The notes under the pieces were generated by a model, which saw only the letters and a program-made list of their open reading frames with translations, was not told the DNA's origin and did no database searches. Made by a program: the position numbers and the translations under genes. DNA of 54,645 bases from Chiloscyllium plagiosum (Eukaryota): assembly GCF_004010195.1 (NCBI RefSeq), contig NC_057719.1:24169933-24224577 (forward strand), in the 5' to 3' direction. This document shows positions 18,717 through 53,538 of this stretch, piece by piece; within the stretch, counting starts at the first letter, position 1, and every line of letters begins with the position of its first letter.

Positions 18717-18939
18717 TAGGAGAAAGAGAGGACTGCAGATGCTGGAGAGTCAGAGTCAAAACGTGTGGCACTGGAAAAGTACAGCAGGTCAGGCAGCATC
18801 TGAGGAACAGAAGATTTGATGTTTTGGGCATAAGCCCCTCATCAGGAATGATGAAGAACTGATGCCCAAGATGTCGATTCTCCTGCTCCTCGGATGCTGC
18901 TTCACCCACTGTGCTTTTCCAGCATCACACTTTTCGACT
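18717..18939. mobile_element. Palindromic Penelope-terminus insert with 16-bp flanking direct repeat
   Basis: Inverted arms (cagcaggtcaggcagcatc / gatgctgcttcacccactg). CATCATTTAAAGCAAC at 18701-18716 and 18940-18955. Minus-strand CTGATGA-GGGGCTTATGCCC-AAAAC. Confidence 0.85.
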
Positions 18940-22862: not shown

Positions 22863-23449
22863 TGAGAAAGTGTATAAGCAGGCTGGGAAAGAGTTAAGTT
22901 CTGAGTTTTGTGAAGAGATTCAGTTGAGCACAGGTAGGGCAAGAGTTATTTTCTGAGTTTTGTGAAACAAAAGGTTCAGCTGAGCATGACTCAGATCAGA
23001 TAAGATCTTACAGTTAACAATGGGGTGCTGGAGGCAAGGGTAACAGGTTAACAAGGTGGAAAAGCAGTCATTATGTACAGTCATTTAACAAGATGAGGTA
23101 GCATTCAGTACGTGAGGTCAGTTTAACAAGGTGTAAAGTATTAATATGTGAAGTAAGCTATTCATTGTGTAACAGCAGATGGCTTCATCTTCACTGTTGA
23201 CACTCGCTGATTGTAACGGTCATCCAATTAATATGTATGTTGCCTTATCTGGATGTTCCTCCCTGTAAAATGACTATATAGTTCATTCAGAAACTGCTGT
23301 TTCAGAGAAGACAGTGAACTCATGGTTCTGTGCACATGGGCAACCGTTCTCTCTCCCTCCAGGGCCGGGAATAAAGATAAAGAAGGTAAAACTACACTGT
23401 GTCTTTGAGCATTTTGCTTCGACTGAAGGGGGAAACAGGATGACAATAC
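22863..23449 (+). mobile_element. Endogenous-retrovirus-like 5' LTR
   Basis: TG start (approximate), U3 direct repeat TTCTGAGTTTTGTGAA (~22899, ~22951), TATATA at 23275, AATAAA at 23370, immediately followed by a PBS. Confidence 0.75.
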
Positions 23450-23467
23450 TGGCGTGGTTGGCAGAAT
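23450..23467 (+). other. Primer-binding site, tRNA-Ser-like
   Basis: TGGCGTGGTTGGCAGAAT matches 15/18 of TGGCGTAGTCGGCAGGAT, the complement of the vertebrate tRNA-Ser 3' end as recalled. Confidence 0.72.
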
Positions 23468-23688
23468 CAAAACAGATAGTTACAATCGGATGGTGTCAGC
23501 AGCTGTCCAGATCATCGCTATCTCGAGACAGATGGGCCCATAAGGTAAAGTTTTAAACCTTGGTACCTCTCGATATTCCTGCGTGCCGGAGATGGTCCCT
23601 TCGTTCAATCGCTCTCTGTTCTACAGATTCCTCAAACGGTAATTAGTTCATTCAAGAGACACAGTTTCGCAAGCGCATTAGCAGGCAG

Positions 23689-24090
23689 AGGTTAAGAGTC
23701 CTCTGCACGGTATTAGAGGAGGGGGGGGGAAGGTTGAGGTTTGAGTCCTCTGCGTGGTACTAGGGTTCGAGATCCCGGGGCGTGGGTGATGTGATTGAGA
23801 CTTGAGTCCCCTGCGTGGGTTAATTTGAGTTTAGAATCCTCTGCACAGTAATGGTGTTAGAGTCCCCTGGGATAGGTGTGATTGAAGTTCGAGTCCTCTT
23901 CATGGTTCTGGGGATCGAGTCTACTGGGTGGACTGATTTGAGGTTCAAGTCCTCTGCACTATGCTGAGGTTTGAGCTTTCTGTGCATAAGTGAGCTTCAA
24001 GCTCTCTGTGATTAAACAAATTTCAAGCTCTGTGTTTAATTGGGGTTCAGGCTTTCTGCATTTAAGTGGGATTTGGGTTCTCCGTATTTA
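23689..24090 (+). repeat. Degenerate tandem array (~14 units, mostly 25-35 bp) with core GGTTYRAGTCC
   Basis: Cores near 23691, 23738, 23764, 23801, 23829, 23856, 23887, 23913, 23942, 23968, 23995, 24021, 24044 and 24071. Confidence 0.8.
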
Positions 24091-25204
24091 AGTGAGGAGT
24101 AAAGTGAGAAAGGGGTTAAAGCCCCCCCACTGGCAAAATTTGAGGCTCTCTGAATCATTGTTCTGGGGGGATGAGAGTGGCTTGGCTTGTAGTGCCATGT
24201 GGTCTGCTGTGAGGGTTTTCTCTTTTCATAAGTGTCATTTCAGTGAGAGGATGCAAAAACAGAAATGCTGAAATTAAGGTTGTACTAATATTTGGGTTGA
24301 AAAAGGAAAGTTTCAATATAGATTGTGCCATGCTGAGAGGGTTTCATGTTTAAACATTTTGGTTTGTTAGAATACTGGTTCAGAAAATCCTTTTAAGTAA
24401 CTGTTTTGCCTTGTTTGAATCAGCATCACAATTCAGTGTGTTTGGTGGGCTGTATAATGGGGCAGATTTTGCTTGTACATTGAAATTGTACAGCATTATG
24501 TCCTCTTTAAAATGATCAAACTTGTAACCTTTAAACAAATTGATTTGAGTGCCTTGAGCCCCTGATTTGTTTCAAATCCTACAATGCTTGTTTAAAAAAA
24601 AACACAGTTGGGTCAATGCTCATGCTTTAGCCAGATGAAAGTATTGAACTAAAATATCCTTGCTGCTGTGTTTTTAATGCAGAGTGTTCACAAAAAGAAG
24701 AGTGCATTTTAAGTTTGATGCTGCTTCAGTTCTATTAATTGGCCTCCTTCATATTGTAAATTCAAAGAATGATCTCTACCAAAATTGCCACTGTAATTCA
24801 GACAGTTTATTTGGAAAACATATTTTTAAATATTCAGCATTTGTTTCCCATGAATATTTGAGTTTTAAATCCAAACTGAAACTGCCTCTTCAATTGCTAA
24901 AGCACAGGAAACATTGTTGTTTTCCTGCTGTTCCAGACTTTTGGAATATTTTTCCTGACAGCTTTCACATTAGCCAGGTATCAATTTGTTAAAGGAAATA
25001 ATATTTGAATAACCTGAACTGAGGCACCCCTGGGCTTGATTTTAGGACTATTGATTGTTGTTTATAATTGACTAATTGTTTAGGCAGTGCAATTTAGAAG
25101 TTTGTGGACTGTCTAAAACTTGATGTTGTTATAAATAGCAAACAGAGTAATAGACTTCAAGAATTCAAAGAACGTTGAAATAGGCAGACACAATTTGGAA
25201 GTTA

Positions 25205-27962
25205 TAGCAAGGGGGGGAAGTCTCAGATAAAGTCACATAGATGGGTTAACTCCAGGAAGGGTAAGAGAGGTAGGCACCTAGGGCAGGAGTCTTTTGTGGA
25301 TATACCTATTTCAAACAGGTACGCTGTTTTGGAAAACGTAGGGGGTGATGCATTCTCAGGGGAACGTAGCACGAACAGCACGAACATTTCTGGTAATGAG
25401 ACTGGCTCTAATGCAACGAGGGGTACGTCAGCTTCCAAGAGATCAATTGTGTTAGGGGATTCTGTAGTCCGAGGTACAGACAGATGTTTCTGTGGCCAGC
25501 AGAGAAAAAGCAGAATGGTGTGTTGTTTCTCTGGTGCCAGGATCAAGGATGTCTCAGAGAGGGTGCAGAATGTTCTCACGTGGGAGAGAGGCCAGCAAGA
25601 GGTCATTGTCCACAGTGGAACCAATGATATAGGAAGGGAAAAGGTTGAGATTCTGAAGGGAGATTACAGAGAGTTAGGCAGAAATTTAAAAAGCAGGTCC
25701 TAAAGGATAGTAATATCTGGATTACTCTCAGTGTTACGAGCTAGTGAGGGCAGGAATAGGAGGATAGAGCAGATGAATGCATGGCTGAGGAGCTGGTGTA
25801 TGGGAGAAGGATTCACATTTTTGGATCATTGGAATCTCTTTTGGGGTAGAAGTGACCTGTACAAGAAGGATTGATTGCACCTAAATTGGAAGGGGACTAA
25901 TATACTGGCAGGGAAATTTGCTAGAACTGCTTGGTAGGATTTAAACTAGTAAGGTGGCGGGGGGGGAAGGGGGGGGACGACCCAGGGAGATAGCGAGGAA
26001 AGTGATCAATCTGAGACTGGTACAGTTGAGAACAGAAGTGAGTCAAACAGTCAGGGCAGGCAGGGACAAGGTAGGACTAATAAATTCATTCACATTTATT
26101 TCAATGCAAAGGGCCTAACAGGGAAGGCAGATGAACTCAGGACATGGTTAAGAACATGGGACTGGGATATCACAGCACTTACAGAAACATCGCTCAGGGA
26201 TGGGCAGGACCGGCAGCTTAATGTCCCAGGATATAAATGCTGCAGGAAGGATAGAAAGGGAGGAAAGAGAGGAGGGGGAGTCACGGTTCTGATAAGGGAT
26301 AGCAGGACAGCTGTGCTGAGGGAGGATATTCCCAGAAATACATCCAGGGAAGTTATTTGGGTGGAACTGAGAAATAAGAAAGAGATGATCACCTTATTGA
26401 GATTGTATTATAGACCCCGTAACAGTAAGAGGGAAGTTGAGAAATAAACTTGTAAGGAGATCTCAGCTCTCCGGAAGAATAATAGGGTAGTTATGGTAGG
26501 GGATTTTAACTTTCCAAACATTGACTGGGACTGCCATAGTGTTAAAGGTTTAGATGGAGAGGAATTTCTTAAGGGCGTACAAGACAATTTTCTGATTCAG
26601 TATGTGGATACCTGCTAAAGAAGGTGCAAAACTTGACCTACTCTTGGGAAGTAAGGCAGAGCAGGTGACTGAGGTGTCAGTGGGGGAGCACTTTGGGGCC
26701 ATAATTCTATTCATTTTAAAATAGTGATGGAAAAGGATAGACCAGATCTAAAAGTTGAAGTTCTAAATTGGAGAAAGGCCAATTTTGACGGTATTAGGCA
26801 AGAACTTTCAAAAGCTGATTGGAGGAAGATATTCACAGGAAAATGGAAGGCTGGAAAATGGGAAGCCTTCAGAAATGAGATAACACGAATCCAGAGAAAG
26901 TATATTCCTGTCAGGGTGAAAGGGAAGGCTGGTAGGTATAGGGAATGCTGGATGACGAAAGAAATTGAGGGTTTGGTTCAGAAAAAGAAGGAAGCATATG
27001 TCAGATATAGATAGGATAGATCGAGTGAATCCTTAGAAGGGTATAAAGGAAGTAGGAGTATACTTAAGAGGGAAATCAGGAAGGCAAAAAGTGTACATGA
27101 GATAGCTTTGGCAAATAGAATTAAGGAAAATCCAAAGCATTTTTACAAATATATTAAGGACAAAAGGGTAACTTGGGAGAAAATAGGGCCCCTCAAAGAT
27201 CAGCAAGGCGGCCTTTATGTGGAGCCACAGAAAATGGGGGAGATACTAAATGAATATTTTGCATCAGTATTTACTGTGGAAAAGGATATGGAAGAAATAG
27301 ACTGTAGGGAAATAGATGGTGACATCTTGCAAAATATCCAGATTACAGAGTAGGAAGTGCTGGATGTCTTGAAATGGTTAAAGGTGGATAAATCCCCAGG
27401 ACCTGATCAGGTGTACCCGAGAACACTGTGGGAAGGTGGAAAGTGATTGCTGGGCCTCTTGCTGAGATATTTGTATCATTGATAGTCACAGGTGAGGGGC
27501 CAGAAGACTGGAGGTTGGCAAACGTGGTGCCACTGTTTAAGAAGGGCAGTAAAGACAAGCCAAGGAACTATAGACCAGTGAGCCTGACCTCAGTGGTGGG
27601 CAAGGTGTTGGAAGGAATCCTGAGGGACAGGATGTACATGTATTTGGAAAGGCAAGGACTGATTAGGGATAGTCAACATGGCTTTGTGCGTGGGAAATCA
27701 TGTCTCACAAACTTGGTTGAGTTTTTTGAAGAAGTAACAAAGACGATTCATGAGGACAGAGCAGTAGACGTGATCTATTTGGACTTCAGTAAGGCATTCG
27801 ACAAGGGTCCCCATAGGAGACTGATTAGCAAGGTTAGATCTCATGGAATACAGGGAGAACTAGCCATTTGGATACAGAATTGGCTCAAAGGTATAAGACA
27901 GCGGGTGGTGTTGGAGGGTTGTTTTTCAGTCTGGAAGCCTGTGACCAGTGGAGTGCCAGAAG
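25205..27962 (+). mobile_element. Long CR1 fragment: ORF1 (SGNH esterase-like) plus ORF2 APE and N-terminal RT, with stops and frameshifts
   Basis: ORF1 has SIVLGDSVVRG and HSGTND. ORF2 has the GDFN region, PEDWRLANVVPLFKKG, YLDFSKAFDK and SGVP. It is truncated at ~27962. Confidence 0.93.
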
Positions 27963-27964
27963 GC

Positions 27965-29270
27965 TTTTGATAATAACCGCACATTAGTACAAGAAAATTA
28001 GAATGCAAGGGACTGAAGGGAACATATTTGTACATATTTGTACGTTAAAGGACAGAAGGCAGAGAGCATCAATACAATTCTCAGCATGGCAGGCTGTTAC
28101 TCATGGGGTGCACAACTTAGGTCCACAACTATTCACAATCTATATAAATGATTTGGATGTGGGAACTAATTGTAATATTTATAGATTTGCTGATGATATC
28201 AAATTGGTGGGAACATAAATTTAAGAAGTGGGCATAGAAGCTGCAAGAAAACTTGAACAATTGAATGAGTTAGAACATGACAGACAGAATCTAACGGAAG
28301 TATGGACTTATTCAGTTTGGTAGCAAAACAAAGGCAGAATACCTCATGGACACTGAAGGCTGGGATCCAGATGTCCTCATCCATGAGTCATAGGTGCAGC
28401 AAGCAATTAGGAAGGCAAAAGGAATGCTAGCATTCATTTCAAGGGGTTTTGAGTACAAAAGTAGAAGAAATCTTAGTGCAGTTCTGTAGAGCCTTGGTGA
28501 GACCTCAGAGTATTATGCACAATTTTGATTTCCTTACCCAAGGAAGGATATACTTGTCACAGATCAAACACAGCGAAAGTTCACCAGATATGCCAGCATT
28601 GTCTTACAAGGAAAATTTGAGGAGGTAGGGTCTGTATTCTGTAGTTTCAAAGAATAAGAGATGATCTCTTTGAAACAACCAAAATTCTTACAGTACACAA
28701 GGTAGATGTAGAGTCATAGAGATGTACAGCACAGAAAGAGACCCTTCGGTTCAACTCGTCCATGACAAGTAGATATCCCAACCTAATCTCGTCCAGTTTA
28801 CCAGCACATGGCCCACATCCCTCTAGTCCAAAAATGTGCAGGGTAGGTGAATTGGCCATACTAAATTGCCCATAGTGTTGGTGAAGGGGTAAATGTAGGG
28901 GAATGAGTTTGAGTGGGTGGCTCTTCGGAGGGTCGGTGTGGACTTGTTGGGCCGAAGGGCCTGTTTCGACACTGTAAATAATCTAATCTAAACTCTTCCT
29001 GTTCATATACCCATCCAGATGCCTTTTAAATGTTGCAACTGTACCAGTCTCCACCATATATAAATTGGATATTTTCACGGACTGGTAAATCTAGAACCAG
29101 GTAACATAATCTCAGATTAAGGGGCAGGCCATTTGAGATAGGTTTCTAGAGACTAATAACATTGAGGGATTTGGAGATGGTGCAGCAAAATGGCATTGAG
29201 GAGATGATCAGCTATGATCTAGAATACTAAATGTATTGAATGGCCCACTCTTGTAATTATGTTCCTTTGA
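27965..29270 (+). mobile_element. Older CR1 RT relic with a nested antisense CR1 tail (~28709-29058), itself containing an HE1 3' piece (~28825-28991)
   Basis: LGPQLFTIYINDLD and FADDIKL. The nested tagagtcatagagatgtacagc tail and an HE1 tail ending (aatct)n are visible. Confidence 0.75.
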
Positions 29271-39397: not shown

Positions 39398-39725
39398 TAT
39401 TAGATTAGATTAGATTCCTTACAGTGTGGAAACAGGCCCTTTGGCCCAACAAATCCACACCGACACGCCGAAGCACAACCCATCCAGACCCATTCCCCTA
39501 CATTAATCCCTTCACCCAACACTACGGGCAATTTAGCATGACCAATTCACCTAACCTGCACACATTTTTGGACTGTGGGAGGAAACCGGAGCACCCGGAG
39601 GAAACCCACGCAGACACGGGGAGAGTGTGCAAACTCCACACTGTCAGTCACCTGAGGCGGGAATTGAACCCGGGTCTCTGGCGCTGAGAAACAGCAGTGA
39701 TAACCACTGTGCCACCCGTGCTCCC
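39398..39725 (-). mobile_element. HE1-type V-SINE, near full length
   Basis: tRNA head, V-core and (TTAGA)n tail in reverse orientation. Confidence 0.92.
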
Positions 39726-45561: not shown

Positions 45562-45783
45562 GGAGGAGAAAGTGAGGACTGCAGATGCTGGAGATCAGAG
45601 CTGAAAAATGTGTTGCTGGAAAAACACAGCAGGTCAGGCAGCATCCAAGGAGCAGGAGAATCGACGTTTCGGGCATAAGAAGGGCTGATTCCTGAAGAAG
45701 GGCTTCTGCCCGAAACGTCGATTCTCCTGCTCCTTGGATGCTGCCTGACCGGCTGCGCTTTTCTAGCAACACATTTTTCAGCT
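45562..45783. mobile_element. Palindromic Penelope-terminus insert with hammerhead core and 16-bp direct repeat
   Basis: Arms of ~80 bp (45597-45676 versus 45707-45784). CTTTTCAACTCTGCAG at 45546-45561 and 45784-45799. Confidence 0.88.
45692..45719 (+). ncRNA. Minimal type-I hammerhead ribozyme motif
   Basis: CTGAAGA-A-GGGC-TTCT-GCCC-GAAAC-GTC. Helix III is reduced to a palindrome, as described for Penelope-associated hammerheads. Activity is untested. Confidence 0.65.
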
Positions 45784-46351
45784 CTTTTCAACTCTGCAGA
45801 CTTGCAAACTGTCATTTTCTGTCACAACTCCAGTCAAAAGCACTGCTAGAATTGTTAAAAAAAAAAGGTTGAATAAGCTTGAGGAGCTAACACATTACAA
45901 CTGATCAAATAGCTAATGGCACAGATTTCAGATGTGCAAGTTGAAATTTCAGTGTGCACCAGAACAATAAAATGGTTATACCAACCCAGGCTTAGACACT
46001 TTCCATTGAAGCAGACTAAAACATAAGCAATAAAAGTAATTGTAAGCACTGCAATTATAGTTACAATATCAGAATCCTTGAAATAACAATGTACCAACAC
46101 CAAGAGATAATGAAAAAGAACTAATCTTTGGTTTGCCATCTATTTTGCAAGGATGGAAAAGCTGGACAGTTAAGAATAGAGGTTGTTTAAAAGCAAAATG
46201 TAGCAAAAGTAGAAAAAGAACAGAGATATCTTTCTGAATCAGGCTATCACAGCACTGCTGAAATATTCATTTTCAAATATGCTGCCCCACAACTTCAGGC
46301 GTTACTGAACCTTTCTTCCACAACACCAGGAAGTTGGAATTAATAACCTAC

Positions 46352-48619: not shown

Positions 48620-48712
48620 CTTCAGGTATCTACGCACTGGTCTTTCAATGAAGCTCAGTTCCTGTAAATCTTCTATTTGCCCGAATAAATTCTCCTGATT
48701 GAAATCCATCAT
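48620..48712 (-). CDS. PPP4R4: PPP4R4 (protein phosphatase 4 regulatory subunit 4), first coding exon
   Basis: Manual translation gives MMDFNQENLFGQIEDLQELSFIERPVRRYLK, ending AAG|GTGTGT (phase 0). This closely matches the vertebrate PPP4R4 N-terminus as recalled (MDFSQNSLFGYMEDLQELTIIERPVRRSLK). The start could be the ATG at 48712 or at 48709. Confidence 0.93.
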
Positions 48713-48981
48713 TTTTTTTTAACAAACGAAACGAGGATTAGAAGAGATGAGAATAAAGCAGCAGAGTCCGGGGAGGAAGAAGAGCTCTGTGCGTTTTTGT
48801 GTGTGGGTGCGGGATTGATCCGGGATCCGGGGGTGGGGAGAGGAGGCTGAGGGAACAGAAGAGTGTGAGGAGAGTGGCAGGGAGAAAATAGGGGTAGGAG
48901 AGAATCTGTGGGCGGGGTGGAGGAAGGTGAGTGGGGAAAGTGAGGCTGGGGGCGGGGAGAGAAGGTGACAATGATGGGTGA

Positions 48982-49498
48982 NNNNNNNNNNNNNNNNNNN
49001 NNNNNNNNNNNNNNNNNNNNNNNNNNNNNNNNNNNNNNNNNNNNNNNNNNNNNNNNNNNNNNNNNNNNNNNNNNNNNNNNNNNNNNNNNNNNNNNNNNNN
49101 NNNNNNNNNNNNNNNNNNNNNNNNNNNNNNNNNNNNNNNNNNNNNNNNNNNNNNNNNNNNNNNNNNNNNNNNNNNNNNNNNNNNNNNNNNNNNNNNNNNN
49201 NNNNNNNNNNNNNNNNNNNNNNNNNNNNNNNNNNNNNNNNNNNNNNNNNNNNNNNNNNNNNNNNNNNNNNNNNNNNNNNNNNNNNNNNNNNNNNNNNNNN
49301 NNNNNNNNNNNNNNNNNNNNNNNNNNNNNNNNNNNNNNNNNNNNNNNNNNNNNNNNNNNNNNNNNNNNNNNNNNNNNNNNNNNNNNNNNNNNNNNNNNNN
49401 NNNNNNNNNNNNNNNNNNNNNNNNNNNNNNNNNNNNNNNNNNNNNNNNNNNNNNNNNNNNNNNNNNNNNNNNNNNNNNNNNNNNNNNNNNNNNNNNNN
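48982..49498. other. Assembly gap (517 N)
   Basis: Run of N between a G/A-rich 5' region and the CpG island. Confidence 1.
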
Positions 49499-49770
49499 GG
49501 GGCGGGGATGAGGCCGCTCCGTCTCCCCGGCAGCCGCCGTCACCAAGGCAACGAGCCGCTACGGCGAGCGCCGAGCGCCCCGATCTCGCCGGACGGAAGG
49601 CGTTCGCTCGTCACTCCGCCCCCGCGAACCATGTCCGCCTCGACCTCCACCTGCCTCCGTGATCCCCCCCCCCACTTCAATACCGTCCCTGACACACTCA
49701 AAAATCGCGGAGACCGGAAAGGACGACGGGGTTATGCCACTGCGGTTGGAGGGAAGAGTCGATTTCGGGT
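49499..49770. promoter_or_regulatory. CpG island / probable PPP4R4 promoter
   Basis: Sharp GC and CpG enrichment just upstream of coding exon 1. GC boxes GGGGCGGGG (49499) and CTCCGCCCCC (~49614), and an ETS-like CGGAAG (~49594). The left edge is hidden by the N gap. Confidence 0.8.
49539..49552. promoter_or_regulatory. RFX X-box motif
   Basis: GTCACC-AA-GGCAAC fits the consensus GTNRCC(N0-3)RGYAAC and lies inside the CpG island. Confidence 0.6.
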
Positions 49771-50484
49771 CTTTTTTTTGTAAATTTTCCCCTCGTCAAG
49801 TGCAGCAATGTTAATGACACATCCCTGGAGCAGGTGGGACCTGTAGCCCTCCTGATACAGAGTCAGGGACATTACCACTGCGCCACAAGCGTCAGGAGTG
49901 GGCCCGGATAAGTCGTCAAGTTTACCTTTGACGACTTCTGACTGTGATTTCCCAGCGTGAATCATCAGATGTTGTGGGTGAGGGTCCTATTGTATAAATT
50001 ATGATTAATGCTGGAGGATCACTTGTGCTACACGTACTGCTGGCAGATGCTTCAGTTTTCTGCGGGGACTTTAATATTTTTGTTTTTTCTGAAAGAGGAA
50101 AGATATTTTGCTAACCCCCCAACCTGAGTGAACTCTTGTTATTTTTGCTGGGGTAAACATCCTCATCGCCTTTGGTAAACTAATTGCTTGTTAATGGGTG
50201 TCGTTTCCACAACTCACTGGTAGCACTCTGAGTCATAAGGTTGTGGGTTCAAGACTTTTGAGCACAAGATGGAGATTCCTTTTCCCTGAGGAACCATAAG
50301 AAGTAGGCCATTCAGCTCATTAAGTCTACTCTGCCAATTACTGAGTTCATGACTAATGTGACAAACCTAAATTCCACTTTTCTGCCTTTTCCCGATAACC
50401 CTTATTTCCCTTTGCTGATTGAAAATCTTTCCTACACTTAAGGTGTTAAGGCAAAGTCTTATGTGATGTCTTGGATGATGAATA

Positions 50485-53230: not shown

Positions 53231-53538
53231 GGGCGGCACAGTGGTTAGCACTGCTGCCTCACAGCGCCAGGGACCTGGGTTCAATTCCCGCTTCAGGCAA
53301 CTGTCTGTGTGGAGTTTGCACATTCTCCCCGAGTCTGCGTCGGTTTCCTCCGGGTGCTCTGGTTTCCTCCCATAGTCCAAAAATGTGCAGGTTAGGTGAA
53401 TTGGCCATGCTAAATTGCCCATAGTGTTAGGTGAAGGGGTAAATGTAGGGGTCTGGGTGGGTTGCTCTTCGAAGGGTCGGTGTGGACTTGTTGGGCCAAA
53501 GGGCCTGTTTCCACACTGTAAGTAATCTAATCTATCTA
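53231..53538 (+). mobile_element. HE1-type V-SINE, near full length
   Basis: Head with B-box GGTTCAATTCC, V-core and (AATCT)n tail. TCTAAAA occurs on both sides. Confidence 0.93.

Follow-up and report, generated by a model that had tools for sequence, protein, structure and literature searches.

In the genome of Chiloscyllium plagiosum, the leader of an element with a long terminal repeat (LTR) carries a run of short repeats that resemble the tRNA T-loop and the polymerase III (Pol III) B-box, and the question raised by this locus is what such an array might do. We analyzed the whole stretch of DNA in which it lies (the window, 54,645 nt), which is vertebrate-type DNA with abundant SINE and LINE remnants. 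Articles are cited by PMC number for the portions of their text that were available.

The element shows the features of an LTR retroelement (Table 1): it is present in many copies, and its LTR, which contains a promoter and a poly(A) signal, precedes a primer-binding site (PBS). Over LTR positions 22883–23431, the summed contig depth in run X1 is 11,000–64,000 compared with about 18–25 in the flank; this depth does not equal copy number, and it rises likewise in runs X10 and X18, which represent two further species. Loose contig ends accumulate at 22872, on the 5′ side of the LTR. In the single-cell RNA run X21, sister copies of the LTR family give polyadenylated transcripts, with 103 RNA reads over 22944–23431, none of which (0/103) is ≥99% alike to the present copy, and with sister-copy poly(A) tails behind 23391 (n = 15). 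X21, a poly(A) single-cell run, has no reads over the array and is uninformative on array expression. The U3 region (22879–22966 and 23013–23137) contains a 36-nt direct repeat with a spacing of 52, which varies between sister copies. Repeats of GTTAAC/TTTAACAAGG also occur there several times, and these U3 repeats are candidate enhancer motifs.

The preliminary description called the leader retroviral, which could not be demonstrated and stays inferential because no coding sequence is left. Pfam analysis of all six frames of 24090–25180 gave no family match and no coding remnant, and no second LTR was found within the 54,645-nt window. The PBS, which we take to be of the Ser type, is genuine but is no proof of a retrovirus, because the same type of 18-mer heads gypsy-like elements; it shows three differences from the version at the head of such elements in metagenome contigs, and sister copies differ from the present copy at PBS positions 23456 and 23465. 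What is left is a dead LTR element without coding sequence, incomplete at its 3′ end. Its PBS (23450–23461) also lies one mismatch away from the Pol III A-box pattern, about 430 nt upstream of the first intact B-box, a likeness that is probably a coincidence.

Between the PBS and the array, the leader contains six 6-nt palindromes, a number reached in 28/500 shuffles, and a splice-donor-like AAGGTAAAG at 23542, which is at no more than chance level. The CpG observed/expected ratio is about 0.9 in this stretch, compared with 0.26 in the LTR, 0.36 in the array and 0.0 after the array; the pre-array leader may once have been very CpG-rich or may have been shielded from methylation. Downstream, contigs join the internal sequence at 24154–24500 to the array end. 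One part of it, 24225–24500, reaches depths of up to 9,300 in X1, compared with 270–2,500 over leader and array, and is common to more elements than the leader, because its depth is much higher. The LINE remnant farther downstream, presumably CR1, matches RVT_1 (E 4e-14) and, below the cut-off, PF13472 (E 0.007).

Table 1. Features of the LTR element, its array and the adjoining LINE remnant (window positions)
Feature	Position	Strand	Evidence or properties
LTR (TG...CA), high-copy family	22863..23445, 5′ end approximate	+	Depth jump; ends read from sequence
TATA-like box	23275..23281	+	Sequence; putative function
Poly(A) signal AATAAA	23370..23375	+	Sequence
PBS, presumed Ser type	23450..23467	+	Sequence; PBS pattern scan
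Pre-array leader	23468..23684	+	CpG-rich, o/e 0.91, 11 CG
Unit 1	23685..23706	+	Perfect 7-bp hairpin, 8-nt loop; −12.9 kcal/mol, local pairing probability 0.79
Units 2–9, A/B dimer, period 56–57	23734..23965	+	Holds all three intact GWTCRANNC: 23887, 23913, 23943
Units 10–14, C-type monomers, period 24–26	23966..24090	+	Position 61 always T
Units 15 (GGGG/CCCC hairpin) and 16 (degenerate C type)	24110..24153	+	Unit phasing, folding
Non-coding internal sequence, same family	24154..24500, reaching at least 24500	+	High depth in three species
LINE remnant, separate from LTR element	25179..28000	+	Esterase-like ORF1 and RT

The array comprises 16 phased units (23685–24153), 14 of which lie inside 23689–24090, where about 14 recurring motifs had been described, and two beyond. 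Most of the earlier layout stands. The array starts 239 nt after the start of the PBS at 23450 (about 240 bp had been given); both exact motifs reported, GTTCGAGTCC at 23887 and GGTTCAAGTCC at 23942, are present; successive spacings of 47, 26, 35, 30, 26, 31, 26, 30, 26, 26, 26, 24, 26, 44 and 24 nt agree with the recurrence every 25–45 bp; and autocorrelation peaks at lags 57/56 within 23801–23965 bear out the two-unit pattern of about 57 bp. By contrast, the supposed decay of units toward the 3′ end proved to be a separate unit type. Three kinds of unit can be told apart: in type A the stem is GAGG/CCTC, in type B it is GGGG/CCCC, and type C is marked by T at position 61 (unit positions follow tRNA numbering). 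Periodicity of the array is above chance, with a top autocorrelation lag of 26 (0.43, compared with a maximum of 0.369 in 1000 shuffles) that reaches 0.57 within 23936–24090. TRF with relaxed settings reports the C part only (period 26, 6.2 copies, 66% matches) and with default settings does not detect the array. When two mismatches are allowed, 7 of the 27 matches to GGTTCGANTCC in the window fall in the array, all on the + strand, where 0.09 is expected per 480 nt; over the whole window this motif is not enriched (27 vs. 22.5 expected).

Comparison of the unit types within the present copy separates cores from spacers. Between types, the cores are 0.66, 0.64 and 0.54 identical compared with 0.35 when shuffled, values somewhat inflated by locating the units via their cores, though the unit phase is regular, whereas the spacers (0.38, 0.30 and 0.34) lie at the shuffled level of 0.32. 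Within types, the identities are 0.64–0.80 for cores and 0.56–0.60 for spacers. The variable sequence noted earlier between cores is thus confirmed. With cores alike from type to type and spacers no better than shuffled sequence, the core was probably under constraint while the element was active. The conserved columns include several that the B-box does not specify, G59 (0.93), C64 (0.93) and G66 (0.87), and the box columns G53 and C61 reach 0.60 and 0.53.

The search for the array in other copies was positive: sister copies in three species carry it. Its depth in X1 is 266–1,562 compared with about 17 for the present locus, which suggests tens of sister copies. Unit number differs between copies, because joints that skip or repeat units occur in all three species. 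This comparison draws on one read alignment, 40 of the 309 difference rows and 24 contig pieces; among those 40 rows, 81–100% of the sister-copy depth has the core-fitting base at 23830, 23855 and 23900, and the present copy therefore understates the family. A contig from organism B crosses the junction between flank and LTR with 7 differences in 215 nt, and probable orthologues show 12/255 differences plus 6 gaps and 26/456 plus 19 gaps over the array, which, on these small counts, is not better conserved than the LTR junction. The insertion is thus old, and the same small counts show no sign of host-level conservation. The array is real and family-wide, and was probably once functional.

Does the core represent a B-box? 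The consensus is GWTCRANNC (PMC4228148), with invariant C56 and C61, and the array does not conform to it: 3/16 units fit, 13/16 fail and T replaces C61 in 6/6 C-type units, such that the earlier count of about 14 B-boxes was overstated. When the units were scored against 77 real T-arms from phage and prokaryote loci, 5/15 had a loop UUCRANY with G53–C61 at or above the 5th percentile of the real set, the remainder falling below that range; such sites number 12 per 108,190 window positions, and the count of 15 excludes unit 1, with its 7-bp stem and 8-nt loop. Positions 56–57 read CG in three units, TG in four and CA in four, so that 11/15 are CpG or one transition away from it, and units 5 and 6 have A56. 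CpG decay likely means that the A/B units were originally closer to the B-box.

A cluster of B-boxes acting at the DNA level, in which TFIIIC on the A/B units would have formed a barrier that protected the LTR promoter from silencing, a Pol III analogue of the gypsy insulator, is nevertheless unlikely. It would account for three intact GWTCRANNC within 65 nt, where 0.4 is expected in 970 nt, and for 5/8 A/B units (2–9) that score as real T-loops do, and it has parallels in the clustered B-boxes that mark S. pombe boundaries (PMC6829894; see also PMC12409998 for boundary clusters) and in the 12 Su(Hw) sites within 340 bp of the gypsy 5′UTR (PMC3383448). Of the TFIIIC-site amplification proposed in the preliminary description, the retention of the core, the mostly CpG-type departures at positions 56–57 and the presence of the array in sister copies stand, but the scarcity of intact boxes and the uniform loss of C61 in C-type units do not fit it. 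Moreover, units 5, 6, 15 and 16 have lost the invariant C56 to A or G (A in 5, 6 and 15), and mutation of C56 severely lowers binding (PMC4228148). Columns outside the box are conserved as well as those within it, the probable orthologous locus shows no added conservation in its small counts, and no convincing A-box accompanies the array (6 loose matches vs. 3.4 expected).

The brome mosaic virus (BMV) box B is a T-loop, and the array has likewise been read as a set of T-loop mimics. True mimicry at the RNA level would have the A/B hairpins read by a T-arm-binding protein, a TRUB1-type enzyme or the Gag matrix, as a tag for export or packaging. The loop is of 7 nt, closed by G-C and in the correct register; a random 26-mer contains GGTTCRANYCC only about once in 10,000. 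Three units match the TruB/TRUB1 motif GUUYRANYC, and TRUB1 modifies 17-nt T-arms (both PMC7912444). By analogy, BMV template recruitment needs box B (PMC5869524), and HIV-1, for which tRNA mimicry is described, has a matrix protein (MA) that binds the tRNA elbow (PMC8473020). Folding argues otherwise, and makes such mimicry decidedly improbable. The 5-bp stem 49–53/61–65 forms in 0/15 units, compared with five stem pairs in 69/77 real T-arms, and 49:65 is U-U in 10/15. The 7-nt-loop hairpin has a local probability >0.5 in only 2/16 units, units that pair with one another hide the loop and, in 24-nt windows, do so with greater stability (−61.6 vs. −51.2), and there is no D-loop partner. Searches with Rfam and ARAGORN gave no tRNA match in the array, and Rfam gave two chance matches elsewhere.

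Unit 1 corresponds to the T-arm implied by the PBS (GCAGG/CCUGC) plus two extra pairs, in the tRNA sense, and it is a speculation that this unit was captured from a co-packaged primer tRNA. Origin by primer read-through past position 58 was rejected, as it would yield an antisense T-arm. A broader scenario, in which an LTR lineage of sharks took up the T-arm of its primer tRNA and amplified it to 16 units, we consider rather unlikely. The units would then serve both as an RNA tRNA mimic, their T-loop hairpins drawing Gag matrix or host T-arm enzymes to the genome for packaging, and as a DNA TFIIIC barrier that shields the LTR.

We tentatively favor, with a confidence a little short of even, a reading of the array as a redundant dimerization/packaging module of short imperfect palindromes that would have acted as RNA. 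The array lies between the PBS and the expected site of gag (no gag remains), and Psi is known between PBS and gag (PMC12789967). Each core is an imperfect palindrome that can pair within a unit or between units. In the monomeric RNA, the core would fold within its unit (4-bp stem, 6- to 8-nt loop) or onto the next unit, and this fold would conceal a pyrimidine arm ending in UCUG. Two genomes would re-pair via the same arms, and the Gag of a helper element would bind the repeated UCUG/G-rich sites, as with the packaging signal of MLV. Reverse-transcriptase slippage between cores would lead to gain and loss of units, and selection would not have acted on the resemblance to a T-loop, which would be incidental or left over from the origin of the array. 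UCUG, which we take to be the MLV nucleocapsid site, follows the core in 9/16 units; this 4-mer is a common one, TCTG ranks 12th among 4-mers, and any motif within a repeat appears enriched. The A/B difference at 51:63, outside the B-box, is compensatory (AU in 5, GC in 2 and unpaired in 2 of 9), and T61 of the C type breaks the B-box while retaining a G-U pair; such changes suit a hairpin, not a B-box. Of the ideas in the preliminary description, the one of an RNA element for packaging fits best, though as a palindromic repeat and not as a tRNA copy.

Structure tests lend such a module little support, and the units entered in them, as copies of one ancestor, are non-independent. Watson–Crick-only hairpin energies give z −3.1 when unit-centered and −2.6 when spacer-centered, each the best of 14 offsets × 2 models, and the unit-centered test fails with G-U allowed (121/1000 shuffles). 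Stem covariation is not above shuffles (161/500), the whole-array fold is no better than shuffles (z −0.52) and 1/19 of the 120-nt windows reaches z −2. The self-duplex of the array, at −149 kcal/mol compared with −128 ± 9 kcal/mol (2/60 shuffles), is expected of any palindromic repeat. In monomeric MLV RNA the UCUG quartets are base-paired, whereas the dimer exposes them (PMC5874298). A packaging function leaves the T-loop match to chance or origin; a random 26-mer holds GWTCRANNC once in 100.

Two further explanations were weighed. That the array is a neutral slippage repeat carried in the leader, resembling a T-loop by chance or through a functionless captured tRNA fragment, would agree with the differing unit number of sister copies and with the lack of significance of both covariation and global fold; among the many repeat families screened, a 1-in-100 to 1-in-10,000 match will occur. 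However, all three unit types retain the core with spacers that agree no better than random sequence, and even within types the spacers fall below the cores, despite the fast-decaying CpG of the core (units being core-located), which leaves neutrality a clearly unlikely account. Very improbable, in our view, is a site for another partner, either a dimeric protein that reads GAGG-N7-CCTC in DNA or, in a PAS-like way, the 5′ strand released from the T-stem of the primer tRNA. The core is indeed palindromic on both strands (reverse strand, 1/300 shuffles) and the mean duplex with the implied primer strand is −6.2 compared with −5.1 kcal/mol (2/300 shuffles), but these duplexes are far weaker than a perfect complement (−16.6), the best site (23568) is outside the array and the primer-strand effect follows automatically from T-arm likeness. 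No candidate protein was found, and the PAS search was at or near chance level.

How does the array compare with known systems? Zebrafish ZFERV and salmon SSSV have tandem repeats in their leaders, for which our literature search gave no confirmation. That search, within the openly available literature, found no T-loop/B-box array in the leader of an LTR element, and the available portions of PMC4977317 and PMC4422223, searched by term, leave leaders unmentioned. Like MLV Psi, the array lies behind the PBS, with several palindromic hairpins that could re-pair and UCUG in the putative stems; unlike Psi, it has 16 tandem copies, one core in three types and a T-loop-like loop, and lacks GACG loops throughout 23685–24153. 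The comparison is with how Psi works and not one of membership, and it may not apply to this element. Leader repeats in LTR elements are already known from gypsy, gtwin and ZAM, and the Drosophila gypsy insulator and the gtwin, ZAM and Idefix 5′UTRs resemble the array in having about a dozen short repeats over 340–470 bp; those repeats bind Su(Hw) or HP1 on DNA, whereas the array core is self-complementary (PMC3383448). TFIIIC B-box clusters and ETC sites likewise have several GWTCRANNC-like sites without an A-box (PMC6829894, PMC4228148, PMC12409998), but in the array 3/16 fit, one type is wholly without C61 and the sites lie inside a retroelement transcript. BMV box B, a B-box-named stem-loop that acts in cis on viral RNA, is a single copy in a plant RNA virus with a demonstrated function, in contrast to the tandem array here (PMC5869524). 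Helenus TRIMs are also non-autonomous LTR elements with tRNA-like sequence; they have one tRNA-derived stretch inside each LTR, whereas here repeated T-loop-like cores lie outside it (PMC10886601). The element was not found to belong with Helenus/TRIMp3, its LTR having no ARAGORN or Rfam tRNA match and no B-box in the stretch scanned and the window-wide list.

Little has been described of the packaging signals that LTR elements of fish and sharks use, and a phase-regular tandem array with three unit types represents a natural mutagenesis series that reveals the bases retained by a leader motif. Were the resemblance to a T-loop functional, tRNA mimicry or TFIIIC insulation tied to retroelement replication would be new; otherwise the locus would clearly exemplify B-box imitation by a leader repeat.

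Scans of viral sequences gave 20 and 55 loci, none like the element; one viral contig, L059, has 9 T-loop-like motifs within 480 nt and is probably a dense tRNA cluster. The two-unit array pattern had no match in metagenomes, and the PBS pattern gave at least 117 loci in the 28/64 parts scanned, none resembling the element and all with ≤2 T-loop motifs per 480 nt compared with 4 in the array. Among 20 hand-picked PBS loci (3 without TRF rows), several look gypsy-like on inspection; their leaders are short and contain no comparable array. The metagenome assemblies contain gypsy-like LTR families with Ser-type PBS (L079, L102, L134, L137, L141, L124, L132 and L138), in several of which gag starts within about 40 nt. 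Elsewhere in the window, an N gap of 517 bases (48982–49498) makes the long ORFs at 48709–49783 artefacts. SINE heads derived from tRNA, with A-box-like and B-box sequences, are present at 53235–53310 (+) and about 39640–39715 (−), the genome being already B-box-rich. A fold-back at 45597–45785 has 83-nt arms that are 94% complementary and 23 nt apart, and its repeat family is also found at 18846, 21800 and 53852.
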